Source: an uncultured Gammaproteobacteria bacterium
Lineage (GTDB): Bacteria > Pseudomonadota > Gammaproteobacteria > Steroidobacterales > Foliamicaceae
Reading direction: 5' to 3'
Length of the DNA: 61,333 nucleotides
NCBI GenBank assembly: GCA_964392625.1
Contig: CAYMQG010000104.1
Coordinates: forward strand, 1 to 61,333
Shown here: piece by piece, positions 1-24,441 of the stretch
Layout of the letters: the number at the start of each line of letters is the position of its first letter
How positions within the stretch are numbered: position 1 is the first letter of the stretch
The notes under the pieces: model-generated
What the model was told of the DNA's origin: nothing
What the model saw: only the letters and a program-made list of their open reading frames with translations
Database searches by the model: none
Translations under genes and position numbers: made by a program

Positions 1-210
1 GAGCCCGTGACCACCACCCGTCCGGCTTCGGTCTCCCGCGCCGCCTGCAGCACGTTGCGGGTGCCCACCACGTTGCACTCGTATATGTCGCGTCGATGCG
101 CGAGAGTGCCGTCGATGGTGAATGCATTCGCGGCGACGTGATAGACGCCTTCGCAACCCTCGATCGCGCGGCGGCGGAAGGACAGGATGTCATCGTCGCA
201 ACCTGCTGCG
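1..210 (-). pseudogene. Inverted or displaced internal fragment of an NAD(P)-dependent epimerase / 3beta-hydroxysteroid-dehydrogenase-family gene (about residues 45-115 of the Rossmann half). It runs off the window edge.
   Basis: The minus-strand translation reads ...DDDILSFRRRAIEGCEGVYHVAANAFTIDGTLAHRRDIYECNVVGTRNVLQAARETEAGRVVVTGS. These are the G-x-D-x-V-x-H-x-AA and NV-x-GT-x-N-x-L-x-AA...VV-x-T-S/G-S blocks of extended SDRs. Further upstream on the minus strand (beyond ~215) the frame reads HRPAEARREKVRAAHN, with no GxxGxxG N-terminus. Confidence 0.5.
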
Positions 211-800
211 CGGTTGTGGGCGGCGCGGACTTTTTCCCGTCGCGCCTCGGCCGGACGATGTGCGACTACACCGACGGCAAGCTCCATGCCTACGTGGACG
301 GCGGGTTCGAGTTCGTGGCGGCGCGCGACATCGTCGAAGGGCACCTGCTGTGCATGCGCCACGGGCGCTCCGGAGAAAAATACATCTTCAGCAGCGAATA
401 CAAGACCATCTCCGACATGCTCGATCTCTACGAGGAGGTCACCGGGATTCCGCGGCCGCACCGGCGGATTCCGGCCAACCTGATGTACGTCTTTTCGGAG
501 GCGGCCAGCTTCTACCTGAGCCGGGTACACCCCGACTTTCCCCAGCGTTTCACGCCCGGCGCCATCCGCCTGCTGAAAAAGCGCCGCCACGCCAATCTCG
601 ACAAAGCGAAAAGCGAACTCGGCTACCGGCCGACCCGCATCCGCGACGCCGTGCATGAGGCGTACGCGTTTCACTTTCACGAGCGCAAGGCGATCACCAA
701 TCCGCAGGCAAAACGCCCGCGCGCGAACGGCGCTGCATACGAGGAAGACGCCGCGCCGAACCGCAGTGCGCAGATGACCGCCGATGGAGGCGCGTCATGA
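205..800 (+). CDS. C-terminal ~195 aa of an NAD(P)-dependent epimerase / 3beta-HSD-family protein. By context it is SdmB/ERG26-like (sterol C-4 demethylation). The 5' half is not contiguous.
   Basis: In the frame of ORF 96..800, from ~205 the protein reads VVGGADFFPSRLGRTMCDYTDGKLHAYVDGGFEFVAARDIVEGHLLCMRHGRSGEKYIF...NLDKAKSELGYRP. This is the substrate-binding half of extended SDRs. No GxxGxxG or YxxxK lies upstream in this frame. The stop TGA at 798-800 overlaps the next ATG (ATGA). Confidence 0.6.
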
Positions 801-1927
801 GCACGGCGACGGCCGGACCGCCCGGCTTCGAGGAGGCCGTCAACCTGCGCCAGAAGGTGCGCGCCGCGGGCATGGACCCGGACTACTGGTACGCGGTCGA
901 GGAAGTGCGCAATATCAAGCCGGGATCCGTGGTCGAGGTGGTTTTCTGGAAGCGTTCGATCGCGCTGTTCCGGGCCGAGGACGGTTCGTTTCATGCCATG
1001 GACAACCGCTGCGCGCATCGCCAGCTCAAGCTTTCGCTTGGCCAGGTGGAGGGTTGCCGACTCGTGTGCGCCTACCACGGCTGGAAATACGACCCGGACG
1101 GGCAGCTTGCCGAGACCGCTCACGAGATGCTTGGGGGAAGCATGCCGAATGTCGCGCTCAGGACCTATCCGGTGAAGGTCCGCTACGGCCTGATCTGGCT
1201 GTTTCCCGGGAACCCGGAACTGGCCGACACGCGCCGCATTCCCGACATTCCCGAGTTGGAGGGCAAGGGCCGCTGGGCCTGCGTGCCGTTGAGCTTCACC
1301 TGGTCGGCGCACCACTCGATGGTGATCGACAACGTCAGCGATTTCACCCACGCCTGGCTGCACCGCCGCTACCGCCCGTTCGACGGCGCCGTGCTCACGC
1401 GCTGCGAAACGGTCGGCGACGACGTGCACGTGGCCTACGACACCAGCGTCGGACGCGGGCGTTTTTCCGGAATGTTCGTCGATCGTGAACGGATCGATAC
1501 CGATTCCATGAAGCTCTGCTATCAGTATCCCTATCAGTGGTCGAACACCGACGAGGCGATAAAACACTGGTGTTTCGTGCTGCCAGTCGACGAGCGCACC
1601 ACCCGGGCCTTCTTCCTGTTCTACTTCAAGTCCCTGAAGGTTCCGCTGCTGCCGATACGCTTCCCCCGGCTTGCAATGACCACGGTATTGAAGATATCCA
1701 ACCGTGTGCTGATCGGGCCGCTGCTTTCCCAGGATGGATTTGCGCTCGAAGCCGAACAGGAGGGTTACGAGCGGCACTGGGACGCGCGTCCGCTGGAATT
1801 CAATCCGGCGGTGCGGGCTTTTCAGAATGTCACGGTGCGCAAGTGGCAGGAGTACCTGGCCAGGGAGAACGGAACGGCAATGCCCGCGCCCGGATTGACG
1901 ACCGCGGACGGCGGCGCCGATGCCTGA
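797..1927 (+). CDS. Rieske [2Fe-2S] non-haem-iron oxygenase. By context it is SdmA-like (bacterial-type sterol C-4 methyl oxidase).
   Basis: Rieske motif CAHRQLKLSLG...CAYHGWKYD and an iron-site-like stretch IDNVSDFTHAWLH. ATG 797 overlaps the upstream stop. The gene sits between the SDR gene and the sterol reductase gene. Confidence 0.7.
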   Translation: MSTATAGPPGFEEAVNLRQKVRAAGMDPDYWYAVEEVRNIKPGSVVEVVFWKRSIALFRAEDGSFHAMDNRCAHRQLKLSLGQVEGCRLVCAYHGWKYDPDGQLAETAHEMLGGSMPNVALRTYPVKVRYGLIWLFPGNPELADTRRIPDIPELEGKGRWACVPLSFTWSAHHSMVIDNVSDFTHAWLHRRYRPFDGAVLTRCETVGDDVHVAYDTSVGRGRFSGMFVDRERIDTDSMKLCYQYPYQWSNTDEAIKHWCFVLPVDERTTRAFFLFYFKSLKVPLLPIRFPRLAMTTVLKISNRVLIGPLLSQDGFALEAEQEGYERHWDARPLEFNPAVRAFQNVTVRKWQEYLARENGTAMPAPGLTTADGGADA

Positions 1928-3017
1928 ACTGCCGTTGACCGCGTTTACGCTTGCGGGCGGCCCGCTACTGGAGGCCGCGGCAATGATCGCCGTGTTCATC
2001 GGCGCCCTGTTCCTCGGTTCGATGTTCCTGCCGGGACGCCGGATCAAGGGGCCGGACGTCGGCGGAAAGTCGACCACGTACAAGCTGAACGGTCTGGCGC
2101 TGTTGCTGCTCACCGCGCTTGCCGCCGGCGTTGCGCAAGTTTCGGGCGCGTTCTCCCTGTCGTCGCTTTACACGCACTTTTTCGCCCTCTTTGTGGCCGC
2201 GAACGTGTTCGCGTTCGCATTTTCCGGCTGGTTGTACTGGCGAGGCGCCCGCAAGAGCGCCGGATCGCCTGGATTCCTGCAGGGTTTCTTCTTCGGTGCG
2301 GAACTCAATCCGGCCCTGCTCGGGGTGGACCTCAAGATGTTCAGTTATCGGCCGTCCCTGATCGGGCTGGCGCTGTTCAACACGTCGTTCGCGGTGGTGC
2401 AATACGAGACCTACGGCCATCTGACCCTCGCGATGGGGCTGTACCAGGTCCTGACATGGGTCTATGTGCTCAATTACTTCCAGTTCGAAGGCGGCATGGT
2501 CCACACCTGGGACATCATCAGCGAGCGCTTCGGATGGATGCTGGTTTGGGGCGACTACGTGCTGGTGCCGTTTTTCTACTGCATCGTCGGCTGGTGGCTG
2601 GTTGACGCGTCGGGTCCTCCGCTGAGCCCTCTCGCCGCCGCCGCCATCCTGCTGCTCTATGCCTTCGGCTTCTGGATGTTCCGGGGCGCCAACGCGCAGA
2701 AGCACCGTTTCAAGCGCGATCCGTCCGCCACGATCTGGGGCCGGCCCGCCGAGTCCCTGGACGGGCGCCTGCTCGTGTCCGGATTCTGGGGCATCGGACG
2801 GCATCTCAACTACAGCGGCGAGATCTGCATCTACCTCGCGTTCGCGCTCACGACCGGTTTCGCGTCCTGGGCGCCGTTTCTGTTGCCGGCGTGGCTTGCG
2901 GGGCTGCTGTGGCACCGTTCGCGCCGCGATGACCGGCGCTGCCGCGCCAAGTACGGCGAACTGTGGGGGCGCTACAAGGAGAGGGTGCCGTATTCGATGG
3001 TCCCTTTCGTGTATTGA
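1920..3017 (+). CDS. Sterol reductase of the ERG4/ERG24 family (probable delta14-sterol reductase)
   Basis: Polytopic membrane protein ending ...GIGRHLNYSGEICIYLAFAL...WHRSRRDDRRCRAKYGELWGRYKERVPYSMVPFVY, the C-terminal ERG4/ERG24 signature. ATG 1920 overlaps the upstream stop (1925-1927). It lies immediately upstream of CYP51. Confidence 0.8.
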   Translation: MPELPLTAFTLAGGPLLEAAAMIAVFIGALFLGSMFLPGRRIKGPDVGGKSTTYKLNGLALLLLTALAAGVAQVSGAFSLSSLYTHFFALFVAANVFAFAFSGWLYWRGARKSAGSPGFLQGFFFGAELNPALLGVDLKMFSYRPSLIGLALFNTSFAVVQYETYGHLTLAMGLYQVLTWVYVLNYFQFEGGMVHTWDIISERFGWMLVWGDYVLVPFFYCIVGWWLVDASGPPLSPLAAAAILLLYAFGFWMFRGANAQKHRFKRDPSATIWGRPAESLDGRLLVSGFWGIGRHLNYSGEICIYLAFALTTGFASWAPFLLPAWLAGLLWHRSRRDDRRCRAKYGELWGRYKERVPYSMVPFVY

Positions 3018-3027
3018 GGAAGTAAGG

Positions 3028-4437
3028 GTGGCAAACCATACCGACAGTGCGGCCACCCTGCGTTCGGCGCGGCCCGCGGCGTCGCCGGGCCAGCCGATTC
3101 CCGAACTTTCCGGCGGTTGGCCGCTGCTGGGCCATCTGCCGGAGTTCCAGAAAGACCCGGTTGCGATGCTCGGCCGCTGCTGGCGCGAGCATGGCGAACT
3201 GGTCCGTTTCCGGCTGGGGACCCGCGAATTCGTGCTGTTTACCGGACCGGAAGCCCACGACTGCTACTTCCGGGCGCCCGAGGACCAGCTTGACGCCCGT
3301 GCCGTGTACCAGTTCACGGTGCCCATATTCGGGCGCGGCGTGGCCTACGACGTGGCCCCCGAGATCATGGCGGAGCAGTTGGGATTTCTGTATCCGGCGC
3401 TGCGCGATGCGTCCATGCGCAGGTACGCGCAAATCATGTACGAGGAAGCCGCCCGGTTTGCCGACGAGCTCGGAGAGGAAGGAACGCTCGACCTGCCGGC
3501 GGCGATGAACCGGCTTACGGTGAACATCGCCAGTCGCTGCCTGCTGGGTCAGGAGGTGCGGGATCAGGTGGATTCGGGGTTCGCCCAGGCGTACCACGAC
3601 CTCGAGGAGGGCATAAACCTGATCGGCTTCTTCCTGCCCAGGCTGCCGATCCCGGCGCATCGGCGTCGCGACCGCGCGCGCCGCAGGATAGCCGGGATTC
3701 TTGTCCGAATCATGGAAGGCCGGCGCGGTTCGGGGGCCGCGCCGGAAGATTTCATGCAGGCGCTGATGCAGGCCCGCTACAAGGACGGCCGGGCCCTGAG
3801 CGACGGCGAGGTGACCGGGATATTGCTGACGGTCCTGTTCGCCGGCCAGCACACCAGCGCGGTGCTCGCAAGCTGGATGGGTCTGGAGATGTTCCGCGAT
3901 CCCGCCTGCGTGGCGCGGATACGCGCCGAGATGCGCGAGGTCTACGGCGAGACGGGCGCAGTTAGCCTGGCCAGTCTCAAGCGCCAGATGGCGCTGGAAA
4001 GGACGGTGCGCGAATGCGAGCGGCTGCATCCGCCGCTCATACTGCTCATTCGCAAGGTGCTGAAACCGCTTCAATATGCGGGTTACACCGTGCCTGCCGG
4101 GGCCCTGGCCGTGGTGTCTCCGGCCGTCTCGCACCGCTTGCCTCACCTGTTCGCCCAACCGCAGCGATTCGATCCCGAGCGGTTTGCACCGCCGCGCAGC
4201 GAGAACAAGCAGCACCTCTACACGCTGATCGGATTCGGCGGGGGCAAGCACCGTTGCATGGGGGAGAAATTCGCCATGCTGCAACTGAAGGCGATCTGGA
4301 CGGTGTTGCTCGATCGCTTCGATTTCGATCCCGTTACGGAGTTTCCCGCGCCGAACTACGGCAGCTGGGTGACAGGTCCCACGGCGCCGTGCCGGGTCCG
4401 CTACCGCCGCCGCCCGCAAGCGGGCTTATTCAGTTGA
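3028..4437 (+). CDS. cyp51: Cytochrome P450 sterol 14alpha-demethylase (CYP51), stand-alone haem domain
   Basis: CYP51 B'-helix signature YQFTVPIFGRGVAYD, I-helix AGQHTS, and haem-Cys loop FGGGKHRCMGEKFA. I placed the start at GTG 3028, 10 nt after the upstream stop and preceded by GGAAG. The 2659-3027 part of the listed ORF overlaps the reductase gene. Confidence 0.85.
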   Translation: MANHTDSAATLRSARPAASPGQPIPELSGGWPLLGHLPEFQKDPVAMLGRCWREHGELVRFRLGTREFVLFTGPEAHDCYFRAPEDQLDARAVYQFTVPIFGRGVAYDVAPEIMAEQLGFLYPALRDASMRRYAQIMYEEAARFADELGEEGTLDLPAAMNRLTVNIASRCLLGQEVRDQVDSGFAQAYHDLEEGINLIGFFLPRLPIPAHRRRDRARRRIAGILVRIMEGRRGSGAAPEDFMQALMQARYKDGRALSDGEVTGILLTVLFAGQHTSAVLASWMGLEMFRDPACVARIRAEMREVYGETGAVSLASLKRQMALERTVRECERLHPPLILLIRKVLKPLQYAGYTVPAGALAVVSPAVSHRLPHLFAQPQRFDPERFAPPRSENKQHLYTLIGFGGGKHRCMGEKFAMLQLKAIWTVLLDRFDFDPVTEFPAPNYGSWVTGPTAPCRVRYRRRPQAGLFS

Positions 4438-7400
4438 GCGCCGCCCCTCCGCGTTACGACGTAATCATCGTTGGTGCGGGGCCTGTAGGCAGCTATTGCG
4501 CCCTCGCCCACGCCCGCAAGGGCGCGCGCGTGGCGCTGCTCGAGGCGAACCCCAGGGCGGCCACGCGGCTGGCCGGCGAGTGGCTGCATCCGCTGGCCGT
4601 GCGCATGTTGCGCGATGCCGGCATTCGTCTCGATCCGCCGCTGCGCAGCACCGAGGGCCAGGGCTTCGTGGTGTTTCCGGAGGACGGTTCGGAGCCGATC
4701 GTGCTCCCGTACCCCGGCGGCGGACGGGGGATCGCCTGCGACCATGAGATTCTCGTGGCGCGTCTGCATGAAGCCGTCCGCAAAGAGCCGGGCATCGACT
4801 TTCTTGTCAATGCGCGGGTAAGGCAGGTCGAAGACGATGGCGTGGTCTTTATCCGCGGCGGCTCCAGCGAACGTCTCGCCGCGGACAGAATTGTCGGTGC
4901 CGACGGCCGGTCCTCGGCCGTGCGACGGTCTTTGGGTCTGCCGATGCGCCGCAAGGCCTGCTCGCGGATGGTGGGCGTGACCCTTGAAGGCGTGAGCCTG
5001 CGGCCGGCCGGTTACGGAAACGTAATACTTGGCGGCCCGGGTCCGATTCTCGGATATCCGCTGGGCGAGCACTGCGTGAGGATCGTTGTCGATGTGCCGC
5101 TCGAGCAGTGGACCTCCAGCGACAGGACCGGCCTGCTGGCCGAGTCCTATGCTCGGGTCCTGCCGGAAGAATTGCGGCCCGCTTATCTCTCTGCGCTGAA
5201 GTCGGGCAAATTCCACGCGGCGGCCAATGAACTCAGGCCGCGCATCTCGTACGGCACGTCGAGGCGGGTGCTGATCGGCGATGCGGCCGGACACTACCAT
5301 CCGATGACGGCAGTGGGCATGACACTCGGTTTCGGCGACGCCGCCGCACTGGCGGAAGGCGGGAGCTTCAGGAATTTCGCCGCCAGGCGATTCGGGGCGA
5401 CCCACGCCCCGGAGTTGCTTGCCATGGGGCTTTACGAGGTCTTTGCCGATCATCGACTCGAAGCGGCGGCGCTCCGGCGCGCGATCTACCGAAACTGGCG
5501 GGCGCATGGCGTCGTTCGCGACCGGACCATGCGGCTGCTCGCCTGTGAAGAAACCTCGATGACCCACCTTGTGCTCGCAACGCTCGCTACGGTGATCCGG
5601 GCGATTGCTGGAGTGGTTCGTTCATCGTTCAGACAGTCGGCCTGGCGGCGCGCCCGCTACATCGTTTTCCCGATCGTTACCCGTGCCCGCTGGTTCATGC
5701 GTGGAATTCGCAAGCTGAAGGAGGCCAGGAACGGAGGCGGCGGTCAGGACCGGCAGGCCCGCAGGGCGTTGTCGCGCGCGCTTCTCGCTTCCATGTCCTC
5801 GAACAACGGCCGAGCCGGCGCCACGCGCACGGGCGAATCCGCGTCGCCCGATGCGCAACCGGCATTGCGCAGGGCTGCGGCGCGGCTGCTGGATCTCCAG
5901 GGGAAGGACGGCGCCTGGGAAGGCGAGATGGTCTGGTGCCCCATGCTCACCGCGCAGTACGTGTTGCTGCAGCACATTCTCGGTGAGCCGATGGACTCCG
6001 GCCGGCGGCGGCGCATCCTGCGCTCTTTCGAGTGCACCCGCCTGTCGGGCGGAGCGTGGGGAATGCATGAGCACTCGCCGCCCCACCTGTTCGTCACCGT
6101 GCTGGTTTATGTCGCCTCAAGACTGCTGGGCGTCGACCGTGAAGATCCGCTCATCGGACCGGCCCGCCGTTTCCTTGCCGAAGAGGACGTGCTCGCGATC
6201 CCCAGTTGGGGGAAATTCTGGCTGGCGCTGCTCAATCTGTATGACTGGCGAGGGGTTAACGCAATTCTTCCGGAACTGTGGGCTCTGCCGCGCGGGTTGC
6301 CGTTGCATCCGTCGAACTGGTACTGCCATACGCGGCTCATCTACATGGCGATGGCGTCCATCTACGCCCGCCGCTCCCACGCGCCGGTCACGCCCGTGAT
6401 CGAATTCCTGCGCGAGGAGTTGTTTGGCGACGAGTTTGACCGCCTCGATTTTTCCTCGGCCCGCAACCGCCTGCGCGATGCCGACCTGTTTGCCCGCCCA
6501 AGCCTGTGGCTGCGCGCCGGATACGGGCTGGCGCGCGTATATGAGCGCTTCCACGGCAAGCGCCTGCGCGCCCGCTGCCTTGAGAAGCTGATCCGGCAGA
6601 TCCAATGGGAGTTGCAGACCACCAGCCACACGAGCATCTCGCCGGTCAGCGGATTTCTTAACATCCTGGCCTTGTGGCTGCACGATCCGGACGATGCCGA
6701 CTGCCGCGCCGCACTCGACAAGCTTGACGGCTGGTTCTGGGAGGACGAGGAGCTCGGCGCGCGCGTCACCGGAGCGAGAAGCAGCACCTGGGATACCGCC
6801 TTCTCCGTGCAGGCGCTGGCGGCCGCGCCCGGGTCCGGTGCAATCGGAGACGCCGTCCGCAAGGGCGCCGGTTTCCTGCGCTCGCAGCAGATCCGCAACA
6901 GCTTCGAGGGGTTTCGCGAGGCCTACCGGTCCGACCCGAAGGGTGGCTGGTGCTTTCCCGGCGGCTGGCATGGCTGGCCGGTCAGCGACTGCACCGCCGA
7001 AGCCGTACTGGGGATTCTCGCCGCCGGCAGCGAAGCCGCCGACGAGGCGGCGCTGACCGAGGCGGTCCGGTTCATGCTGCGCAGCCAGAACCGCGACGGC
7101 GGTTTCGGCAGCTATGAAGCGCGGCGCACGAGGATCGGTCTGGAGTGGCTGAACCCCGCCGAGATGTTCGGCGAATCGATGACCGAGAATTCCTACGTCG
7201 AATGCACGGCGTCGTGCCTCGAGGCGCTGGCCGCTTGCCGACGCGGGTTCCCGCAGGTGCTGGGCCCGTCGGCGGTAGGTGCCATCTCCAAAGGCGCCGC
7301 CTGGCTGCGCAAGACCCAGGGGCGCGACGGCTCATGGCGCGGCGTATGGGGCGTTCAGTTCATCTACGGCACCCTGTTCGGCATAAGGGGGCTGGTTGCC

Positions 7401-7841
7401 GCCGGGGCCGGACCGAGCGATCCGGCGCTGCGCCTGGCCTGCCGCTGGCTGCTCGACCGGCAGCGCGAGGACGGAGGATGGGGCGAACACCATAGCGGCT
7501 GCCTGACGGGCCGCTACGTTCCGCATGAGGAAAGCCAGGTCATTCAGACCGCCTGGGCCCTGCTCGCGCTGCTGGAGGCGGAGGAGTCCAACTGGACCGC
7601 CATAGCGCGCGGCGCGCGGTTCCTGCTCAACTCCCAGGAGGCGGACGGCGGCTGGCCGAAACAGGACATGGCCGGCGTCTTCTTCCGCACGGCGCTGCTG
7701 GACTACGTCCTCTACCGGCAGTATTTCCCGCTGCGCGCGCTGGGCCTCTACGAGCAACGCCGCCGGACCCGGCTCGAACTGACCGCCGCTTCGAAGGAGA
7801 AGGAGCCGGACGTGGTCCGGACCAGGCCGCGAGCCGCCTGA
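4434..7841 (+). CDS. Fused squalene monooxygenase (ERG1-type, N-terminal ~400 aa) and oxidosqualene cyclase (C-terminal ~680 aa), 1135 codons
   Basis: One frame runs from TTG 4434 (TTGA overlap with the cyp51 stop) to TGA 7841 with no stop. The N-terminal part has DVIIVGAGPVGSYCALAHARKGARVALLE and LIGDAAGHYHPMTAVGMTLGFGDA. The C-terminal part has the OSC catalytic motif WPVSDCTAE and QW repeats (RSQNRDGGFGSYE, KTQGRDGSWRGVWG, DRQREDGGWGEH, NSQEADGGWP). Confidence 0.8.
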   Translation: MSAAPPRYDVIIVGAGPVGSYCALAHARKGARVALLEANPRAATRLAGEWLHPLAVRMLRDAGIRLDPPLRSTEGQGFVVFPEDGSEPIVLPYPGGGRGIACDHEILVARLHEAVRKEPGIDFLVNARVRQVEDDGVVFIRGGSSERLAADRIVGADGRSSAVRRSLGLPMRRKACSRMVGVTLEGVSLRPAGYGNVILGGPGPILGYPLGEHCVRIVVDVPLEQWTSSDRTGLLAESYARVLPEELRPAYLSALKSGKFHAAANELRPRISYGTSRRVLIGDAAGHYHPMTAVGMTLGFGDAAALAEGGSFRNFAARRFGATHAPELLAMGLYEVFADHRLEAAALRRAIYRNWRAHGVVRDRTMRLLACEETSMTHLVLATLATVIRAIAGVVRSSFRQSAWRRARYIVFPIVTRARWFMRGIRKLKEARNGGGGQDRQARRALSRALLASMSSNNGRAGATRTGESASPDAQPALRRAAARLLDLQGKDGAWEGEMVWCPMLTAQYVLLQHILGEPMDSGRRRRILRSFECTRLSGGAWGMHEHSPPHLFVTVLVYVASRLLGVDREDPLIGPARRFLAEEDVLAIPSWGKFWLALLNLYDWRGVNAILPELWALPRGLPLHPSNWYCHTRLIYMAMASIYARRSHAPVTPVIEFLREELFGDEFDRLDFSSARNRLRDADLFARPSLWLRAGYGLARVYERFHGKRLRARCLEKLIRQIQWELQTTSHTSISPVSGFLNILALWLHDPDDADCRAALDKLDGWFWEDEELGARVTGARSSTWDTAFSVQALAAAPGSGAIGDAVRKGAGFLRSQQIRNSFEGFREAYRSDPKGGWCFPGGWHGWPVSDCTAEAVLGILAAGSEAADEAALTEAVRFMLRSQNRDGGFGSYEARRTRIGLEWLNPAEMFGESMTENSYVECTASCLEALAACRRGFPQVLGPSAVGAISKGAAWLRKTQGRDGSWRGVWGVQFIYGTLFGIRGLVAAGAGPSDPALRLACRWLLDRQREDGGWGEHHSGCLTGRYVPHEESQVIQTAWALLALLEAEESNWTAIARGARFLLNSQEADGGWPKQDMAGVFFRTALLDYVLYRQYFPLRALGLYEQRRRTRLELTAASKEKEPDVVRTRPRAA

Positions 7842-7843
7842 CG

Positions 7844-8863
7844 TCAGTCTCGCCGGGACAGCGGTTTCCGGGCCAGGAAAAAGAACATCGGCGTGAAGAT
7901 CCCGGTGCGGCCGCCTTCAACGAGCGTGTCCGCCCCCCAGTTCAGGAACGAGCTGACCTCCCTGGCGCCTTGCGGAGCGAGCCGCAACCCCTCGGCAACC
8001 CACAGGATCAGATTGGTCAGGGCGCGGCCCAGGGGCGAGCGCGGGATACTCGCCAGACTGAAATCCCGGCCCTGCAGGGCCCGGTACCAAGGCGTTTCCG
8101 GATCCGATTCGGGCGCAAGGTCCCGGGCTTCAAGCAACTCGAATCCGGCCGCGCGCACTGCTTCGCACACCTCCGTAATGCTGGCGATGTCGGGTAGCCC
8201 CGATCCCGTCATGATTCCTTCCTTGACTCGCATGTGTTCCGTGTTCGAAGGATCGAATACGTCGGTGAGACACCAGTCGTAGCACGCGAAACCGGCCCCG
8301 GGACGCAAAACACGGAAGATTTCGCTGTAGGCGGCGGTCTTGTCCGGCGCGTGGGGCATCGCTTCGATGCTGATGGCGCCATCGTAGTGGTCGTCGCTCC
8401 GGGGAATCTTCATGTAGTCGCTCTTGATGAAACGGCACAGCGCCTCGACGTCCCGGGTGTGCACTTTCGCGCGCTCGATCTGGTAGGCGTTGTTGTTGAC
8501 GCCGACAAAACTCGCGCCGCAATAGCGGGCAAGATTGCCCGCGGGGCCGCCCACACCGCATCCCGCGTCGAGAATCTGCATTCCCGGTCTCAGCGACAGC
8601 TTGTCGGCCAGGAAATGCTGGTGCCGGATCTGCGATGCCTTGAAACTCTCGCCCCGCCGCCGCGGAGCAAAGTGGAAGCTGGTACCCCAACCCCACTCGT
8701 AGAAATCGGTTACGAGGTCGTAGTAATGATTGACGAGCTGCCGGTAATGCTCCTTCTTGCTTTCAATACCGGCATCGTGGAGCCCGACGTAGTCATCGAC
8801 CACCGACTTCACTTCCTCCTGGGTCAGATTACCCAGGGAACGATTGGCTACTTTCGTATCCAC
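7844..8863 (-). CDS. Sterol 24-C-methyltransferase (ERG6/SMT family)
   Basis: Carries YYDLVTDFYEWGWGTSFHF (SMT region I), the SAM motif ILDAGCGVGGPAGNLA, and IEAMPHAPDKTAAYSEIFRVLRPGAGFACYDW. GTG start at 8863 with a GGAGG 7 nt upstream. Its stop lies 2 nt from the cyclase stop. Confidence 0.85.
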   Translation of the reverse strand: MDTKVANRSLGNLTQEEVKSVVDDYVGLHDAGIESKKEHYRQLVNHYYDLVTDFYEWGWGTSFHFAPRRRGESFKASQIRHQHFLADKLSLRPGMQILDAGCGVGGPAGNLARYCGASFVGVNNNAYQIERAKVHTRDVEALCRFIKSDYMKIPRSDDHYDGAISIEAMPHAPDKTAAYSEIFRVLRPGAGFACYDWCLTDVFDPSNTEHMRVKEGIMTGSGLPDIASITEVCEAVRAAGFELLEARDLAPESDPETPWYRALQGRDFSLASIPRSPLGRALTNLILWVAEGLRLAPQGAREVSSFLNWGADTLVEGGRTGIFTPMFFFLARKPLSRRD

Positions 8864-8984
8864 CCCCGCGCCTCCGGATGTGCCGGCAGGAAACCAGCGC
8901 GATTGTATCCTGCCTGCGCTCGTTGCATCGCATGGCGCGCGTTAGAATGCGCCCGCCGCCACAGTGGACGTAGCGAGGGGGCAC

Positions 8985-9719
8985 ATGTCCGAAAGCCGCG
9001 CCAGTCTGCCGCCATCCGAACCAGGCCGGGGAAGCAGAGGCCCGACGGTTCCGGTGGCGCTGGTCGTCGCTCTGACGATCGCCGCCGGCACGCTTCTCGG
9101 TATCCTGGTGCGCCTGCAGACCGGCGGGCAACTGAATTTCCTCCACTCCCTGTTCTGCCTGTTCTTTTCGGTCAATCTACTGATCTGCTACTGGGAGATC
9201 TGCCTGTTCTTCCTTCGCGACCGGATCGGGACGCGAGCCGAGTACTGGCGCGAATTGCAGGGCAGGACGGGAAGGTCGCCCGCCCACGGTTTCTTTGCCA
9301 CGAGGATCGGGCTGACGCAGGTCCTGTCGCCGTCCGTGTGGGCCGATGCCTGGGCGGCCTACTGTTATTACGACGACTCGTATGCGGACCGCCGCACCTT
9401 CGGCTTCAACGTGGACATCGCCAACGGTTTCGTGACGCCCGTTCCGACACTGGTCCTGTATGCCGCATTCACGGTGGGCTACCCGTCCGCTCGCATCGCC
9501 GGGATTATCGGGCTGATGATGTCCTGGCAGTGGGTTTACATGACATCGACCTACCTGGTCAGCTTTTTCGTTGCGCGGCGTCAAACCCTGCTGAGCCGGC
9601 GCGACGTGTACATCTACATCGTGGCGATCAATTCCTTCTGGATTCTGTGCGCGCTGCTGGGCGGGTACGTTTCCGTCGCCCTCATCGTCAACGGCGACTA
9701 CCGCGTGCTGGGTTTGTAA
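8985..9719 (+). CDS. EXPERA-domain / emopamil-binding-protein (EBP)-like polytopic membrane protein; candidate sterol delta8-delta7 isomerase
   Basis: About 5 hydrophobic helices. WAAYCYYDDSY matches the EBP pattern W-x2-Y-x3-D-x2-Y (human WKEYAKGDSRY). There is a Glu in TM2 (CYWEICLFF, compare VIEGWF). ATG 8985 is preceded by GAGGGGG. An alternative GTG start exists at 8964. Confidence 0.5.
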   Translation: MSESRASLPPSEPGRGSRGPTVPVALVVALTIAAGTLLGILVRLQTGGQLNFLHSLFCLFFSVNLLICYWEICLFFLRDRIGTRAEYWRELQGRTGRSPAHGFFATRIGLTQVLSPSVWADAWAAYCYYDDSYADRRTFGFNVDIANGFVTPVPTLVLYAAFTVGYPSARIAGIIGLMMSWQWVYMTSTYLVSFFVARRQTLLSRRDVYIYIVAINSFWILCALLGGYVSVALIVNGDYRVLGL

Positions 9720-9758
9720 TATCGGGGTTTTCCGACAGCAAACGATCAAGGAATCCGA

Positions 9759-10358
9759 ATGACCGCACAACGAATCGCGGAAATACAAAAGCAGATTTTT
9801 GAACTGACCGGGGAACTCGGGACGCTCCTGAAGCAAAGCCGCGGCGCCGAGGTGCCCGACTACCGCTTCGCCGGCGGGTCGGGCGAGGTGAGCCTGCTTG
9901 AACTCTTCGCCGGCAGGGACACGCTGCTGGCGATTCACAACATGGGCCAGGGGTGTCGTTACTGCACCGTCTGGGCCGATGGCTTCAACGGCTTTCTTCC
10001 GCACCTGGAAAACGCGATGTCGGTAGTGCTGCTGTCGAAGGACCCGCCGGAACTGCAGCGGCGGTTCGCCAACGAGCGCGGCTGGCGCTTCCGGCTCGCC
10101 TCGCACGGCGGCGGCGCCTATATCCGCGAGCAGACGGTCGTGGAAGGCCAGGACAATTACCCGGGCGCCGTCGTTTACAAGCGCGAAGGGGACAAGGTTC
10201 TTCGCTTCAACGCCTGCGTTTTCGGACCCGGCGACCTCTACTGCTCGCTCTGGAGCCTCCTCGCGCTGGCCGGCATGGGCGCGCAGGACTGGACCCCGCA
10301 GTATTCCTACTGGCGGCGCCCGGAAGTGCTCGACGATGGCGGAGAAAACGTCTACTAA
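9759..10358 (+). CDS. DUF899-type thioredoxin-fold protein
   Basis: Reads LLAIHNMGQGCRYCTVWADGFNGFLPHLEN, the C-x-x-C-containing core typical of DUF899 proteins. An AAGGAA RBS precedes ATG 9759. Confidence 0.55.
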   Translation: MTAQRIAEIQKQIFELTGELGTLLKQSRGAEVPDYRFAGGSGEVSLLELFAGRDTLLAIHNMGQGCRYCTVWADGFNGFLPHLENAMSVVLLSKDPPELQRRFANERGWRFRLASHGGGAYIREQTVVEGQDNYPGAVVYKREGDKVLRFNACVFGPGDLYCSLWSLLALAGMGAQDWTPQYSYWRRPEVLDDGGENVY

Positions 10359-10400
10359 TCGCGCGCGTTCGTCACATCGGCACTCGCTTGTCCGAATGCA

Positions 10401-10420
10401 AGCATATTGATAGCATATTG
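10401..10420 (+). promoter_or_regulatory. Tandem direct repeat AGCATATTG-AT-AGCATATTG upstream of vapB; candidate antitoxin operator and promoter
   Basis: A perfect 9-nt repeat with an 11-nt period, 22 nt upstream of the vapB ATG. RHH antitoxins typically bind tandem repeats overlapping their own promoter. Confidence 0.4.
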
Positions 10421-10441
10421 CTGTCAATTCGGAGATCTGTA

Positions 10442-10678
10442 ATGGGCACGCTAACGATTCGCAACCTGGACGATGGAGTAATTGAGAAATTGAAGGCGCA
10501 GGCGAAGGCCAATCACCGCTCCCTCGAAGGAGAAATCCGCCATGCATTGACACAACGCGCGGACCCTCTCGGGCGCATCGCGGAGTTTCGCGATCGCACG
10601 CGTAATCTTCAGGCGCTTACCGCGGATCGCAAACAGACCGACAGTGTCGAACTGCTTCGCGAGGATCGGGAGCGTTGA
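10442..10678 (+). CDS. vapB: Ribbon-helix-helix antitoxin (VapB/FitA-like)
   Basis: 78 aa, MGTLTIRNLDDGVIEKLKAQAKANHRSLEGEIRHAL, an Arc/MetJ-type RHH N-terminus. GGAGA RBS. The stop overlaps the PIN gene start (TTGA). Confidence 0.8.
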   Translation: MGTLTIRNLDDGVIEKLKAQAKANHRSLEGEIRHALTQRADPLGRIAEFRDRTRNLQALTADRKQTDSVELLREDRER

Positions 10679-11133
10679 GAGTCACCATCGATGCTAGCAT
10701 TGTCGTCAAGTGGTTTGTCGTGGAATCTTTTTCTCAAGAATCACGGCTGCTGCTGGCGCGGGACTTGGAACTTCAAGCTCCGGATCTATTGATACCGGAA
10801 TTCGCCAATACGATCTGGAAGAAAGCCAGACGGCGTGAAATCGCTGACCCGGAGCCGTTCCTCAATGAATTGCACAGCCTGTCCGAACTGATTGAGTTGT
10901 ATCCTGCTGAAGCGCTCATCGAACGGGCATCGCAACTGGCCTTCGAAATCGACCATCCCGTTTACGACTGCCTCTATCTTGCGTGCGCCGAAGTCTCCGG
11001 CACACCTTTGGTAACGGCCGACAAGCGCTTGGTGGCCAGGGCAGATGAGAGTCAATCAGGCCTTGAGGTTCGCAACATTGGCGTCCCCGCCACTGCACGC
11101 TGGATCAAGGACGCGCGTGCTGCGTCAGGCTAG
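10675..11133 (+). CDS. vapC: PIN-domain toxin (VapC family)
   Basis: 152 aa with VTIDASIVVKW..., ...HPVYDCLYLACAE..., PLVTADKRL, giving the acidic PIN residues. It is translationally coupled to the antitoxin. The GC content is visibly lower than in the flanking DNA. Confidence 0.8.
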   Translation: MRVTIDASIVVKWFVVESFSQESRLLLARDLELQAPDLLIPEFANTIWKKARRREIADPEPFLNELHSLSELIELYPAEALIERASQLAFEIDHPVYDCLYLACAEVSGTPLVTADKRLVARADESQSGLEVRNIGVPATARWIKDARAASG

Positions 11134-11150
11134 CTGGCCGGAAACCGGCG

Positions 11151-11891
11151 CTACATGTTTAGCTGCTTTCCGGTCGTGTAGCCGCCATCCACGTAAATGT
11201 TCTGACCGGTGATGTAGCTCGCCGCGTCCGAGCACAGGAAAGCAACCGTGTCGGCAATTTCATCCGGAGTCCCGGCGCGCTTCATCGGATGCGCCTTCAG
11301 CGACGCATCCAGCTGCTTTTCCTTGCCTGGCGCGTTCAGGTGCGAGGACATCGGGGTGGTCACCAGACCCGGGCAAACGCAATTCGCCCGAATATTGTCG
11401 CTTGCGTAATCGATGGCGATGCACCTGGTCAGGTGCGCTACTCCGGCCTTGCTCGCCGCATAGGCGCTCATTCTTTCGGGCGCCAGGCGTCCATACACGC
11501 TGCCGATGGTGACTATGGTCCCGCCCCCTTGTTTCTGCATGTGAGGAATGACGGCGCGAGCCACAAGGAAGGCCGACGTCAGGTTGACCTCCAGGACGTT
11601 GGACCAGCTCTGCGAATCCAGTTCCGTCACGGTGCCGTATTGACCGATGCCGGCGCAGTGAACGAGCGCGTCCAGCCCTCTTGAGGGGACGCCAAGGCCC
11701 TGCACGGCCTTTTGTGTCACTTCCTCGTTGCTTACGTCCGCCTGTTCGAAGCGGTCGAAGACCGATGGATCGGGACTTGCATTGACGTCCATGCCCAGCA
11801 CGGCGTATCCATCGCGATGGAACCTCCGCGCGCAGGCCAGGCCTATTCCCGACGCAGCGCCGGTGACCAGTACGCGCTTTCGCCTACTCAT
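11151..11891 (-). CDS. Short-chain dehydrogenase/reductase (FabG-like)
   Basis: Carries [13 protein letters not shown] (TGxxxGxG) and [13 protein letters not shown] (YxxxK). Confidence 0.8.
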
Positions 11892-15230: not shown

Positions 15231-16367
15231 CTAATCGTCGCGGGGGAAAGTCGTAGGCACAACCGGGTGGACCCAGTTCTTCGGGTCCTTGCGGCGGGCC
15301 GGCGAGGGGATGGAAAAATGCCGGTAGCGCCCTTCGTGCTCCAGTTTTTCGACATCGATTTCCCAGCCCTGCTTCACTTTCTCGAACAGCACTTTCCGGA
15401 ACGCCGTTTCGAGCTGGTCGGATTCGACCAGCAGCTGGTGCGCCATGGAACGCGGCACGAATTTCGGCTCCACCGAGGCGACCGCCTCATAGTCTTCGCG
15501 GAAGGCCAGCCGGATGCCGTCGAGACGCGCCTCGTCGTGCTCTTCTTCCATCAGGTAGTTGCGCGCCTGGTGCATGAAGATCCGGGTGTTGTAGGGATCG
15601 ATGGGGGTTCGGGCGGACACGGTTACCTGCCGGACATTGCCCTCGCGAGTAATGTCAATCCGGTGCGAAATGCCCGCCAGGTAGGAGTCGGTGGATGCAA
15701 CAGTCTTGCCCCTTTTCCTGGATACCAGCTTGGCGATGTCGGCACTGACCTGTGTGTGCTTGGGCGGAACCCGTTCACGCGTGGCGTTATGGCCCCCGAA
15801 GGCGTTCGCGACCAGCGGAACGATCTGCACTTTCGGCGCGCTGCGCCGGCCGAACCGGGAATGCACGAAGGCCGGGTGCGCGCTGTCGAGCGAGTTCTCG
15901 TGACCGCGGGCCCAGTTCACGTCGGCGTCGAACTCGATCGAGACTACCCGCCAGTTTTCCTTGTCTTGGTATTCGGGGAAATCGGTTGCCGGGATCGCGG
16001 GACGCTCCTCCTCCTCCAGGTCGCCCAGGAAAACCCAGACCCAGTCGAAATGCTCTTCGACGGGATACGAGTCCACCCGCGCGCGCCTGGGGATGTTGGT
16101 ATCTTTTCCAAGCGCGGGAATCTCGACGCACTGGCCCTGCGCATTGAATTTCCAGCCGTGGTAGCCGCAGGCAATACATCCGGCGCCGTCCAGTTCACCC
16201 CGGCCAATGGAACCGCCGCGATGGCAGCAGGTGTTGGTCAGACAGACGGCCTTGTCTTCCGGAGTTCGGAAGAGCACGAAATTCTGGCCTAACATACGCA
16301 CGATCAATGGCTTCTCGGCATTCACCTCCTGGCTTTTTGCCGCCACGTACCAGTTGTTCATCAACAT
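15231..16367 (-). CDS. Rieske non-haem-iron oxygenase, VanA/phthalate-family alpha subunit-like (paralog of 33527..34669)
   Basis: N-terminus MLMNNWYVAAKSQEV, Rieske motif CCHRGGSIG...CGYHGWKF, and iron site ENSLDSAHPAFVH. An alternative upstream ATG exists at 16391. Confidence 0.8.
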   Translation of the reverse strand: MLMNNWYVAAKSQEVNAEKPLIVRMLGQNFVLFRTPEDKAVCLTNTCCHRGGSIGRGELDGAGCIACGYHGWKFNAQGQCVEIPALGKDTNIPRRARVDSYPVEEHFDWVWVFLGDLEEEERPAIPATDFPEYQDKENWRVVSIEFDADVNWARGHENSLDSAHPAFVHSRFGRRSAPKVQIVPLVANAFGGHNATRERVPPKHTQVSADIAKLVSRKRGKTVASTDSYLAGISHRIDITREGNVRQVTVSARTPIDPYNTRIFMHQARNYLMEEEHDEARLDGIRLAFREDYEAVASVEPKFVPRSMAHQLLVESDQLETAFRKVLFEKVKQGWEIDVEKLEHEGRYRHFSIPSPARRKDPKNWVHPVVPTTFPRDD

Positions 16368-16462
16368 GCTCGTCCCCCATTTGTCCGACATACAACCATT
16401 CGGTTCGACGGTCGGGCGCGGATGTGATCGTTCATTTTAGCTTTCCCCGCTGAACCCGAAAG

Positions 16463-17939: not shown

Positions 17940-19139
17940 TTGGCGGACGTCGATCGAGTCCTGATCGCAGGCGCCGGTCCCGTCGGGCTGAGTTGCGCCC
18001 TGTTCCTGACCCGCAGCGGCATACCGGTTTCGGTATTCGAGGCCGAGAGCGAGCTGCCCGAAGACATGCGCGCATCGACTTTTCATCCGGCCACGCTGGA
18101 TGTGCTCGATGACCCCGAAATCGTCGGGGATTTGCTCGCGGATGGCGTCAAGTGCAGGCAGTGGCAGTACCGCAATCACGAAACGGGCGAATGCGCCGTG
18201 TTCGACATGGACGTCCTGCGGGGCCGGACCTCTCACCCCTACAGGCTGCAATGCGAACAGTTCCGGCTGACCCGGGCGATCTGCTCGAGGCTCGGAGACA
18301 ACAGTCTGTTCAATCTCGAGTTCGGGGTCCGCGTGACCCATGCCGGGCAGAACGAAGACGGCGTCGACGTCAAGGTGGAAGCGCCGGACGGGCCGCGAAC
18401 GGTCCCCGGCAGCTTTATCATCGGCGCGGACGGCGCGGGGAGTCGGATCCGCAAGGCCATGGGCCTGGACTTCAAGGGCGAGACGTATCCGGTCACGTCA
18501 CTGACGGTTGCGGTTCGCTATCCCTTCGACAGGCATATCGAAGGCCTGTTGCCGGTCAATTACTGCTGGACCGAAGACAGTCACTTCAGCATGATGCAGC
18601 TGAAGGACGTCTGGCGGGTCGGTTTTGCGCCCAAACCGGGGCAGTCGCATCAGCAAGCGTTGCAGCCGGATCAGATCCAGGCCCGGCTGCAGGAAATCCA
18701 CCCGAAAGAGGGTCCATACGAGATCGCTCACACAGGCGCCTACACCATTCACCGGCGGATCGCAGACAGTTTCCGCGCAGGGCGCATGGTCTTGGCGGGC
18801 GATGCCGCGCATCTGAACAGTCCTTCGGGCGGCATGGGCATGAACAGCGGCATTCACGACGCGCGCAACCTTTGCGACAAGCTGGGCGCGATCATCCTCG
18901 AGGGCGCGGACGAATCGTTGCTGGACCGTTATTCGCGGCAGCGCCGTTCAATCGCCCTCGATGAGGTGCAGGTCAGGTCCGACCGGAATTACCGGCGCCA
19001 CAGGGTGAAGGGCAAGAGGGAAAGAGCCGAAGTCTGGGACGAGCTACGGCGCGTGACGGGCGACCGCCGCCTGATGACCGACTTCCTGATGGAAAGCTCG
19101 ATGCTGCGGTCGCTTGAGAAGGCAGAGCGGATCGAGTAG
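17940..19139 (+). CDS. FAD-dependent aromatic-hydroxylase-type monooxygenase (group A)
   Basis: Carries VLIAGAGPVGLSCALFLTRSGIPVSVFE and LAGDAAHLNSPSGGMGMNSGIHDARNL. TTG start. Confidence 0.75.
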   Translation: MADVDRVLIAGAGPVGLSCALFLTRSGIPVSVFEAESELPEDMRASTFHPATLDVLDDPEIVGDLLADGVKCRQWQYRNHETGECAVFDMDVLRGRTSHPYRLQCEQFRLTRAICSRLGDNSLFNLEFGVRVTHAGQNEDGVDVKVEAPDGPRTVPGSFIIGADGAGSRIRKAMGLDFKGETYPVTSLTVAVRYPFDRHIEGLLPVNYCWTEDSHFSMMQLKDVWRVGFAPKPGQSHQQALQPDQIQARLQEIHPKEGPYEIAHTGAYTIHRRIADSFRAGRMVLAGDAAHLNSPSGGMGMNSGIHDARNLCDKLGAIILEGADESLLDRYSRQRRSIALDEVQVRSDRNYRRHRVKGKRERAEVWDELRRVTGDRRLMTDFLMESSMLRSLEKAERIE

Positions 19140-23241: not shown

Positions 23242-24441
23242 ATGTCAATAGCCGGGCATGACCCGGTCCTGGTGGCCGGCGCCGGGCCCGTAGGGCTGGT
23301 TGCCGCGCTGCTGCTCGCCAGGGCAGGCGTGCGTGTGAGGGTCTTCGAGAAGCGCGAGTCTCTCAGCCGCGCGTCCAGGGCCTCGACCTTTCATCCGCCC
23401 ACGCTGGCCATACTGGACGAACTCGGCGTGGCGGACACGGCGATTGGCGCCGGCAGGGTCGTACGGGAGATTCAATATCTGGACGGCGCCCATAAGGTGC
23501 TGGCCCGGTTCGACATGGCGGACCTTGCGACGGAGACGCCCTTTCCCTTTCGCCTGCACTATGAACAGGGGGAGCTCACGCGGGACATCGTCGGGGCTCT
23601 TGAGCGGTTGCCGAACGCCGAAATCACGTTCCGGGCGGAGGTCATCGGCGCGGAGACGGCCGGCTCGCAGGTCGCCGCCGACATCCGGTGCCCTGCAGGG
23701 CGGCAGAAGGTCATCGGGTCATGGCTGTTTGCAGCGGACGGCGCACGCAGCGCCGTGCGGGAAAGCCTCGGGATTGAATTCGACGAACGGCCCTACGGAA
23801 CGCACGTGCTTCGCGTCATGACACGCCAGGACCTGGACACCGTGGTTCGCGGAATAGCGCCGCTCAGTTACATCTTCAATGACGAGGGGTCCTGCAGCCT
23901 GCTCGAGATGCCCGATTGCTGGCGCATCATCCTCAGGGTTCCTGCGGGGACACCGCAGCGACTGGCGCTCGACATGGACTGGCTCAGGGAACGGCTCGGC
24001 AGGTTCTTTGCCCCGTCCGACCTTCGCGAACCGGATTTCGTTTCGACCGACATCTTCGCGGTAAGCAGGGCCATTGCCGGCGAAAACCGCGCGGGCCGGA
24101 TCTTTCTGGTCGGCGACGCCGCGCACCTGACCAATACGCGCGGCGGCATGAACATGAACTGCGGAATTCATGACGCCTATGCGATCGCCGGCGCCCTGAT
24201 CGACACGCTGAAGGGCGGCCCCGAGAGTATGCTTGGGCGGCCCGCCGAGGAGCGGCATGAAATTGCGCGAAACGAACTTATTCCACGCACCGATCATAGG
24301 GTCGCCAGGGCCAATGACTGGCTTCGCGAAGTACGCGACTGCGCCGGCGATCCGATGAGGGCTCGGGAATTTCTCCGGTCCGCATCGATGCTGGACATCG
24401 CCCCGCGCGTGAAGCCGCGTCGGGAAAGCCTTGCCGGCTGA
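23242..24441 (+). CDS. FAD-dependent aromatic-hydroxylase-type monooxygenase (paralog of 17940..19139)
   Basis: Carries VLVAGAGPVGLVAALLLARAGVRVRVFE and LVGDAAHLTNTRGGMNMNCGIHDAYAI. Confidence 0.75.
   Translation: MSIAGHDPVLVAGAGPVGLVAALLLARAGVRVRVFEKRESLSRASRASTFHPPTLAILDELGVADTAIGAGRVVREIQYLDGAHKVLARFDMADLATETPFPFRLHYEQGELTRDIVGALERLPNAEITFRAEVIGAETAGSQVAADIRCPAGRQKVIGSWLFAADGARSAVRESLGIEFDERPYGTHVLRVMTRQDLDTVVRGIAPLSYIFNDEGSCSLLEMPDCWRIILRVPAGTPQRLALDMDWLRERLGRFFAPSDLREPDFVSTDIFAVSRAIAGENRAGRIFLVGDAAHLTNTRGGMNMNCGIHDAYAIAGALIDTLKGGPESMLGRPAEERHEIARNELIPRTDHRVARANDWLREVRDCAGDPMRAREFLRSASMLDIAPRVKPRRESLAG

Follow-up and report, generated by a model that had tools for sequence, protein, structure and literature searches.

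We analyzed a 61,333-nucleotide stretch of DNA from an uncultured gammaproteobacterium (contig CAYMQG010000104.1; the whole stretch is hereafter called the window) and found that positions 4434-7841 of its forward strand encode a squalene epoxidase (SE) and an oxidosqualene cyclase (OSC) in one uninterrupted open reading frame (ORF). This frame is a genuine single gene, and in our judgment its product is probably a bifunctional, membrane-associated enzyme of the type previously named MsbE or "fused SMO-OSC". In textbook bacterial sterol loci, the SE and OSC genes are separate. The gene was divided into the following parts.

4434..5558, + strand: SE catalytic body, FAD-dependent, aa 1-375 (Pfam SE and FAD_binding_3)
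5559..5780, + strand: the epoxidase's own C-terminal tail, three basic amphipathic helices predicted to bind membrane, aa 376-449
5781..5849, + strand: short low-confidence tether, aa 450-472, holding Met454 (ATG at 5793)
5850..7841, + strand: OSC, predicted lanosterol synthase, aa 473-1135 plus the stop (Pfam SQHop_cyclase_N and SQHop_cyclase_C)

Continuity of the reading frame

Translated, 4434-7841 reads through 1135 codons to a terminal stop without meeting another stop codon. The frame is already open from position 4014, and its 4014-4434 portion overlaps the preceding CYP51 gene, which is read in another frame. The likely start codon is a TTG at 4434 that shares bases with the CYP51 stop as TTGA. 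An ATG, GTG, or TTG was present at the aligned start in 76 of 79 related loci, and among the 25 loci viewed with their context this codon was nearly always followed by A, generating an NTGA overlap with the CYP51 stop. The window DNA is 63.6% G+C and carries many long spurious ORFs on both strands; because long chance ORFs are common at this composition, an open frame by itself is weak proof of a gene.

The frame was therefore judged by its relatives. A genome scan covering one genome per GTDB species located 401 stretches that encode a relative, and the best 80 of these were taken for comparison. All 80 loci kept the cyclase in a stop-to-stop frame that ran for 1135 codons or more without interruption. 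A protein search (5.8 billion proteins, E ≤ 1e-10) recovered 572 relatives, with details covering the best 120 clusters (formed at 90% identity). These clusters, drawn from ENA, NCBI, and JGI, were 1089-1186 aa in length, were 67-90% identical to the window protein over 95-100% of the query, and contained both the SE and the cyclase Pfam domains. The initial annotation of the window, made from its sequence without database searches, had proposed a single SE-OSC polypeptide with no in-frame stop, and this proposal is borne out by the 1135-codon translation and by the open frame in 80 of 80 relatives. The gene is conserved rather than being the product of one assembly's missing stop. The comparative data were negative for a stop or frameshift at ~5700-5800, where it had advised looking for one; the frame is intact there in every one of the 80 relatives. 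The database search for an SE plus SQHop_cyclase architecture, also advised there, returned more than 120 clusters of full-length fusions.

Base composition and substitution patterns gave the same picture. The G+C content at third codon positions was 0.70-0.94 over the entire ORF, junction included. The ratio of nonsynonymous to synonymous substitution rates (dN/dS) was ~0.1-0.2 in both catalytic halves for most of 11 close pairs of sequences. For the junction (aa 378-470), the ratio was 0.3-0.8 in nine of the 11 pairs and 0 in the remaining two. The junction is thus more relaxed than the halves, yet its dN/dS values below 1 and the steady third-position G+C indicate that it is translated in this frame.

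The epoxidase half

Pfam SE (PF08491) matched aa 154-394 with 82.4 bits against a cut-off of 20.1, and SE together with FAD_binding_3 covered aa 8-394. The sequence DVIIVGAGPVG lies at aa 9-19 and GDAAGHYHPMTAVGM at aa 282-296, and the three FAD fingerprints of this enzyme family were found as GAGPVG at aa 14 (GxGxxG), GADG at aa 155 (DG), and GDAAGH at aa 282 (GD). Residues G14, G16, G19, D157, G158, and D283 were invariant among 69 homologues. An AlphaFold2 model of the protein was built from these 69 homologues (mean predicted local distance difference test score (pLDDT) of 72; predicted template modeling score (pTM) of 0.56). When the model was searched with Foldseek, human SQLE (6C6N) aligned over 455 columns of the 450-residue target with a template modeling (TM) score of 0.78 (normalized to the target) and a root mean square deviation of 4.0, and the match took in the C-terminal membrane-associated helices of SQLE. 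Sequence identity between the SE half and human SQLE was 23-24%, and the half also gave weak matches to models of UbiH-type hydroxylases.

The cyclase half and its predicted product

SQHop_cyclase_N (PF13249) matched aa 479-772 (176 bits, E 1e-51) and SQHop_cyclase_C (PF13243) matched aa 783-1107 (193 bits, E 7e-57), and the general cyclase model TIGR01787 was passed with 504 bits against a cut-off of 323. The VSDCTAE sequence at aa 850-856 aligns with V453-S-D455-C-T-A-E of the human enzyme; it is the OSC-type acid motif and not the DxDD of squalene-hopene cyclases (SHC). The catalytic residue, Asp852, is encoded by nt 6987-6989, and V850, D852, and C853 were invariant among the homologues. 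Four Qx2-5GxW repeats lie at aa 489, 962, 1010, and 1068, two of which meet the strict Poralla QW pattern. The half matched human OSC (1W6K) with an E value of 8e-130, versus 1e-50 for SHC, and is 35% identical to the human enzyme. In the Foldseek search, human lanosterol synthase fitted the second half of the model with a TM score of 0.65 (normalized to the target), and no PDB entry covered both halves. All of the motifs quoted in the initial annotation (the FAD motifs, VSDCTAE, at least four QW repeats, a hydrophobic helix, and a basic Gly-rich stretch) were located, the last two of them in the junction described below.

The equivalent of human position 453 is an invariant Val (V850). In bacteria, the Val at this position alone tracks lanosterol rather than cycloartenol (Wei et al. 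2016). On the basis of this residue, we tentatively assign lanosterol as the product of the cyclase.

Anatomy of the junction

No 19-mer of the protein is more hydrophobic than THLVLATLATVIRAIAGVV (aa 377-395; Kyte-Doolittle 1.8), which lies in the segment between the two catalytic bodies together with the basic, Gly-rich KEARNGGGGQDRQARR (aa 429-444). The alignment of stand-alone epoxidases (442-477 aa) with the fusion ends at aa 419-467, and that of stand-alone cyclases (644-689 aa) begins at aa 454-477. The AlphaFold2 model places helices at aa 376-397, 401-434, and 439-449, drops below a pLDDT of 50 at aa 452-469, and begins the first cyclase helix at aa 475. The ends of the stand-alone homologues, together with the superposition of SQLE on approximately the first 450 residues, identify aa 376-449 as the epoxidase's own tail, and the real connector is ~20 residues long. 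Alignment with a natural split pair, described below, puts the SE|OSC boundary at ~aa 463-467. The hydrophobic helix and the basic stretch of the earlier description are both present, but what it took for a linker of ~100 residues is mostly the tail of the SE, followed by a tether of ~20 residues.

The net charge of aa 398-450 is +13 in the window protein, and the median over 81 homologues is +8. Such basic helices fit an interfacial, monotopic membrane anchor. A conserved transmembrane helix at aa 377-395 was considered and rejected; the median hydropathy of this segment among the homologues was 1.15 (n = 81), and only 11 exceeded 1.6. The segment is more likely an in-plane or amphipathic helix.

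The spacing from aa 372 to aa 491 was 116-120 residues in 81 of 81 sequences, which come from approximately ten phyla. Within the junction an AWRRAR motif and Ser453 are conserved, and the junction sequence as a whole evolves faster than the catalytic cores. By these alignments, the junction is constrained in length.

The ATG at 5793 encodes Met454 and had been proposed as the former start of a separate cyclase gene. That proposal is not supported. Of 81 homologues, 18 have Ile, Leu, or Val in place of Met454; at the DNA level the codon is ATG in 62 of 80 loci and ATA, ATC, ATT, CTG, or TTA in 17. No purine-rich, Shine-Dalgarno-like sequence was found ahead of this ATG. Among stand-alone cyclases, the distant P0134 has a Met1 that aligns with Met454; in the split pair, the equivalent Met lies within the tail of the SE.

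A natural split pair within the fused clade

One locus, L083 (ENA ERZ24894576, ctg49556l, 8001-11440), encodes the two enzymes separately, as an SE of 477 aa ending in a TAG stop, a spacer of 5 nt, and an OSC of 666 aa with a GTG start. Its gene order is sdmB, a small ORF, sdmA, CYP51, SE, and OSC. The L083 epoxidase (P0144) is the closest stand-alone epoxidase to the window protein and has 13 cluster members from several assemblies, including a metagenome of the sponge Petrosia ficiformis. The L083 cyclase is 72% identical to the cyclase half of the window protein, as near as fused proteins from other phyla, and the epoxidase is 55% identical to the SE half.

Neighbor-joining trees were used for coarse placement only, being rough distance trees without support values. 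The L083 OSC fell inside the fused clade, with distances of 0.18-0.19 to fused members and 0.45-0.56 to outgroups; the L083 SE had distances of 0.36-0.40, versus a within-clade median of 0.375. The sequences suggest that the split arose either by secondary fission or as a basal survivor of the unfused state, and the rough trees favor fission.

In comparison to L083, the fused gene is without ~16 terminal residues, the stop codon, and the spacer, a difference of ~56 nt by which the frame is restored. Met454 aligns with a Met in the tail of the L083 SE (FLVSM...), 23 residues ahead of the SE stop, and the GTG start of the L083 cyclase lies ~8 residues past this Met equivalent, aligned near aa 462.

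Distribution of the fusion and of related fusions

The 80 related loci carry labels of Gammaproteobacteria, Alphaproteobacteria, Nitrospirales, Binatia, Acidimicrobiia, Bryobacterales, Vicinamibacterales, Longimicrobiales, Opitutales, Dehalococcoidia/Chloroflexi, and Thermodesulfobacteriota, a total of ~10 phyla, and titles from sponge microbiomes are frequent among them (Spongia_Bin9, Candidatus Porisulfidus, Ca. Poriferihabitaceae, and lac_sponge). The closest relative among these best 80 of 401 is the metagenome-assembled genome (MAG) Gammaproteobacteria bacterium SB0673_bin_2 (L001), with 92% identity. Identities between phyla are 64-72%, pointing to horizontal spread of the sterol unit.

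A HMMER search of 1.84 billion cluster representatives, in which clusters were formed at 50% identity and the sponge clade merges into P0036, revealed further full-length SE-OSC fusions. P0121-P0126 have overall identities of 47-51%, and P0133 and P0136 have a cyclase half that is only ~35% identical. In a rough tree, P0121-P0126 grouped beside two unfused cyclases and P0133/P0136 occupied a separate branch. Fusion or fission has probably occurred more than once.

Several of these distant proteins were viewed with their surroundings. L081 (Logan SRR14366766, 3879-12110) encodes the fused P0122 of 1092 aa, ~50% identical to the window protein, in the rearranged order 3-beta-HSD(sdmB)-CYP51-Rieske(sdmA)-SE/OSC-EBP-ERG24; its EBP gene is a canonical Pfam EBP. 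The locus adjoins Rrf2 and COX1-like genes, and a sister copy on an ENA contig has a nos_propeller/cupredoxin gene close by. L082 (NCBI GCA_041156705.1, JBFPEA010010148.1) holds at 3257-7945 (+) a single multi-domain ORF of 1562 aa, composed of HMG-CoA reductase (aa 14-397), polyprenyl synthase (487-723), squalene synthase (825-1111), and 3-beta-HSD/epimerase (1198-1425). It lies 55 nt upstream of the divergent fused SE-OSC P0133 (1073 aa), so that six pathway domains are carried by two ORFs, and its neighboring genes look bacterial (OmpA, AraC). A separate fusion class of ~1140-1200 aa joins an N-terminal squalene epoxidase to a C-terminal squalene/phytoene synthase (P0215, P0223, and P0249; probably also P0231, P0237, P0247, P0259, and P0260). 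Between the SE and the synthase, P0215 and P0249 show a weak, partial SQHop_cyclase_C-like match (~aa 600-740).

Operon and neighboring genes

The genes surrounding the fusion were assigned as follows.

1..800, + strand: sdmB-like gene, 3' part, cut by the window edge; NAD(P)-dependent sterol C-4 demethylation enzyme
797..1927, + strand: sdmA-like Rieske oxygenase (4-methylsterol monooxygenase), Pfam Rieske and VanA_C
1920..3017, + strand: ERG4/ERG24-type sterol C-14 reductase, Pfam PF01222 (246 bits)
3028..4437, + strand: CYP51-type cytochrome P450 (sterol 14-alpha-demethylase), Pfam p450 (E 8e-61)
7844..8863, - strand: sterol C-24 methyltransferase (ERG6/SMT type), convergent with the fusion, Pfam Sterol_MT_C (E 2e-22) and methyltransferase domains
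8985..9719, + strand: 244-aa multi-pass membrane protein, tentatively EBP-like (sterol delta8-delta7 isomerase fold)

The best NCBIfam model for the sdmB-like gene was NF052578, "sterol demethylase protein SdmB" (E 1e-37, profile positions 154-328 of 328), and, the gene being truncated, the match does not reach the equivalog cut-off; the gene is syntenic in most related loci. For the sdmA-like gene, the best model was NF052579, SdmA (405 bits, E 2e-121), below the equivalog cut-off of 600 bits. This gene overlaps its two neighbors by 4 and 8 nt. The CYP51 gene has a GTG start preceded by the ribosome-binding-like GGAAGTAAGG, and its position matches msbD / ERG11 of published clusters. Overlaps of 4-8 nt, or a short spacer with a ribosome-binding-like sequence, indicate a translationally coupled operon, and the fusion is the fifth gene of this sdmB-sdmA-ERG24-CYP51-SE/OSC operon. 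At least 64 of the 80 loci show the same order, generally with an SMT gene beside it; SMT adjoins the fusion in ~60 of the 80.

The 244-aa ORF is kept near the fusion gene in ~30 of the 80 loci, across several phyla. It has 449 homologues, and the names shown for them were all "hypothetical". An AlphaFold2 model was obtained with a pLDDT of 89 and a pTM of 0.84, and its sole confident PDB matches by Foldseek were two structures of human EBP, 8W0R (probability 1.00, E 3.7e-3) and 6OHT (0.99). The TM scores were borderline (0.49/0.56 for 8W0R; ~0.5-0.57 across both EBP structures). At the sequence level, the ORF matched no NCBIfam model and no Pfam model at E ≤ 10, EBP (PF05241) included; a search of its profile against PDB sequences found nothing; and hhalign against the L081 EBP gave a probability of 0.7%, providing no link. 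In L081, the canonical EBP occupies the place equivalent to this ORF. The 244-aa protein may be an unrecognized bacterial sterol isomerase.

No further sterol genes were found among the ORFs sampled at 9.7-35 kb of the window, which were ordinary catabolic and transport genes. This region holds additional oxygenases outside the sterol operon, namely Rieske/VanA_C proteins at 15231-16391 (-) and 33527-34669 (-) and FAD_binding_3 monooxygenases at 17940-19139 (+) and 23242-24441 (+). They lie among genes for HpaB-type hydroxylase, amidohydrolase, TonB receptor, and ABC transporter proteins and look like ordinary catabolic enzymes.

Proposed mechanism and alternative explanations

From the domains, motifs, and operon context we infer the two enzymatic activities and the following course of reaction. 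The protein would be held on one membrane leaflet by the basic amphipathic tail of the epoxidase. The SE half would convert membrane squalene to (3S)-2,3-oxidosqualene, which would pass a short distance to the entrance of the cyclase, where Asp852 of VSDCTAE would protonate the epoxide and start cyclization, most likely to lanosterol. The tetracyclic sterol, once released, would then be processed by CYP51, ERG24, SdmAB, and SMT. Joined in this way, two monotopic enzymes would most likely be kept at 1:1, side by side on the same leaflet, with a short path for the epoxide, and both activities would stay together during gene transfer. The benefit of the fusion could be proximity or channeling, a fixed 1:1 stoichiometry, or mere co-inheritance, and substrate channeling is plausible. 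The fixed length of the junction argues for some structural role. A more specific model, which we offer tentatively and regard as less likely than not, is that the junction is more than a passive tether, being a length-locked module at the membrane interface. The basic amphipathic tail of the SE and the ~20-residue connector would together fix how the exit of the SE faces the entrance of the cyclase, such that oxidosqualene would be passed on within the protein-lipid interface.

Several observations weigh against parts of this interpretation. The occurrence of a split pair within the fused clade means that the covalent link is not indispensable and weakens any strict need for channeling. With a pTM of 0.56 and a disordered tether, the model does not fix how the two halves are oriented to each other. 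For the cyclase, the best NCBIfam match, TIGR03463 "osq_cycl", scored 741 bits, under its cut-off of 851; this shortfall speaks against membership of that narrow subfamily only and not against OSC identity. The human positions 381/449 read Ala/His in the window protein and do not fit the canonical lanosterol triad of T381, C or Q449, and V453, which makes the product assignment tentative. Finally, we found no biochemical, structural, or proteomic study of this fusion family in the literature.

The strongest competing account is that the fusion is real and has no kinetic or channeling role, the ~56-nt deletion being a neutral or weakly advantageous joining of coupled neighbors that was kept for co-expression and co-transfer; we give this a substantial chance, although one that falls short of even. 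It is consistent with the composition of the fused protein, which amounts to two stand-alone proteins end to end with no added linker, with the split version and its 5-nt spacer inside the same clade in several assemblies, and with an operon whose genes already overlap at their ends. Other fusions of pathway enzymes (the HMGR-FPPS-SQS-HSD protein of L082 and the SE-x-SQS proteins) suggest, moreover, that fusion comes easily here. More drift than is seen here would be expected of a neutral connector, however, since the junction holds to 116-120 residues (n = 81, ~ten phyla), retains AWRRAR and S453, and has a dN/dS below 1, and the fused form is far commoner than the split form among the relatives recovered. 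Another possibility is that one ORF yields two proteins, with a separate cyclase made by initiation at Met454 or by proteolysis of the tether. The ATG in 62 of 80 loci, the alignment of the P0134 Met1 with Met454, and the predicted disorder of aa 452-469, which is potentially protease-accessible, would allow it. We nevertheless consider it improbable, given the non-ATG codon at 454 in 17 loci, the missing Shine-Dalgarno-like sequence before the ATG at 5793, the L083 Met within the SE tail with the cyclase GTG ~8 residues further on, and a conserved frame and junction length that two independent products would not need.

The halves themselves might be misassigned, the first being a flavoprotein with a non-squalene substrate or the second a squalene-hopene-type cyclase that needs no epoxide. 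The low identity to human SQLE (23-24%) and the weak UbiH-type matches lean that way. The Pfam SE score of 82 bits against a 20-bit cut-off, the best N-terminal fold match to SQLE over its full length with the C-terminal helices, the OSC-type VSDCTAE, a match to human lanosterol synthase (E 8e-130) that is far better than the one to SHC (E 1e-50), and neighboring genes that all encode post-lanosterol sterol enzymes make such a misassignment very unlikely. An artifact of sequencing or assembly, in which a base error or indel erased a stop between two genes, is suggested solely by the prior expectation from textbook loci. We rejected it, its probability being negligible, because the same open frame occurs in all 80 independently assembled genomes and in more than 120 protein clusters; the continuous codon-position G+C pattern, the purifying selection across the junction, and the publication of the fusion by two independent groups also speak against it.

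A single gene encoding a bifunctional SE-OSC thus remains our preferred interpretation. As the entry enzyme of a symbiont pathway found in ~ten phyla, the fused SE-OSC would determine, by its activity and product, what these bacteria can make. Sterol synthesis by sponge symbionts bears on a debate (Brown et al. 2023, PMC10070321) about how far 24-isopropylcholestane and related steranes can be relied on as a fossil record of early animals. With native proteins joined end to end, a near-fixed junction, and a natural split variant, the family is a convenient system for the study of channeling between monotopic membrane enzymes, and the question of channeling by covalent linkage is also relevant to the metabolic engineering of triterpenoids. 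If the length-locked model of the junction is true, the L083 pair and the EBP-like protein would allow a complete, minimal bacterial machine from squalene to delta7-sterol to be rebuilt.

Comparison with known systems

The fusion and its operon have been in print since 2020 and are widespread, so they are not new, and the possible novelty raised in the initial annotation falls away, two independent groups (Mohanty et al. and Brown et al.) having reported the fusion. The architecture is known at the annotation level. Mohanty et al. 2020 (Mar Drugs 18:124, PMC7074536) reported a fused MsbE in the msb locus that a gamma-proteobacterial symbiont carries in the sponge Melophlus sarasinorum. The locus consists of msbA/B (NAD(P) oxidoreductase and Rieske protein), msbC (sterol reductase), msbD (14-demethylase), msbE, and msbF (SMT), and its gene order equals that of the window. 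MsbE was treated in that report at the level of annotation, without junction analysis or biochemistry (PMC7074536), and the likeness rests on annotation and gene order.

"Fused SMO/OSC homologs" appear in Brown et al. 2023 (Nat Commun 14:1859, PMC10070321), whose supplement lists one gene of an Aplysina aerophoba metagenome that matches both ERG1 and ERG7 and adjoins ERG11, ERG24, two SMTs, and sdmB. In that study, the SMO part was trimmed before phylogeny and only methyltransferases were tested, the fusion itself not being analyzed (PMC10070321). Of 537 Ircinia MAGs, Kelly et al. 2022 (Microbiome 10:164, PMC9531527) found 115, from 10 phyla, to carry an ERG24-CYP51-LSS "CSG" operon, for which they reported horizontal transfer and purifying selection. 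This 10-phylum spread matches that of the 80 loci compared here. At 3765 positions, their LSS alignment is as long as the fused gene; the epoxidase part went unremarked and the gene was labeled LSS/ERG7 (PMC9531527). Literature searches turned up the fusion in no publication other than these three, and it is without mention in Hoshino & Gaucher 2021, in the 2025 MBE cyclase phylogeny, and in Wei et al. 2016. For the near-fixed junction length and for the split pair inside the fused clade, we found no published account.

Each half of the window protein matches the fold of a human enzyme, SQLE (6C6N) or lanosterol synthase (1W6K), which in humans are separate proteins of the endoplasmic reticulum membrane. 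Stand-alone bacterial squalene monooxygenase and OSC proteins, such as those of L083 and the 689-aa OSC P0129 of a Myxococcota MAG, belong to the same enzyme families. L083 shares the neighbors sdmB, sdmA, and CYP51 with the window and differs from it in having two polypeptides, with a stop codon and 5 nt between them.

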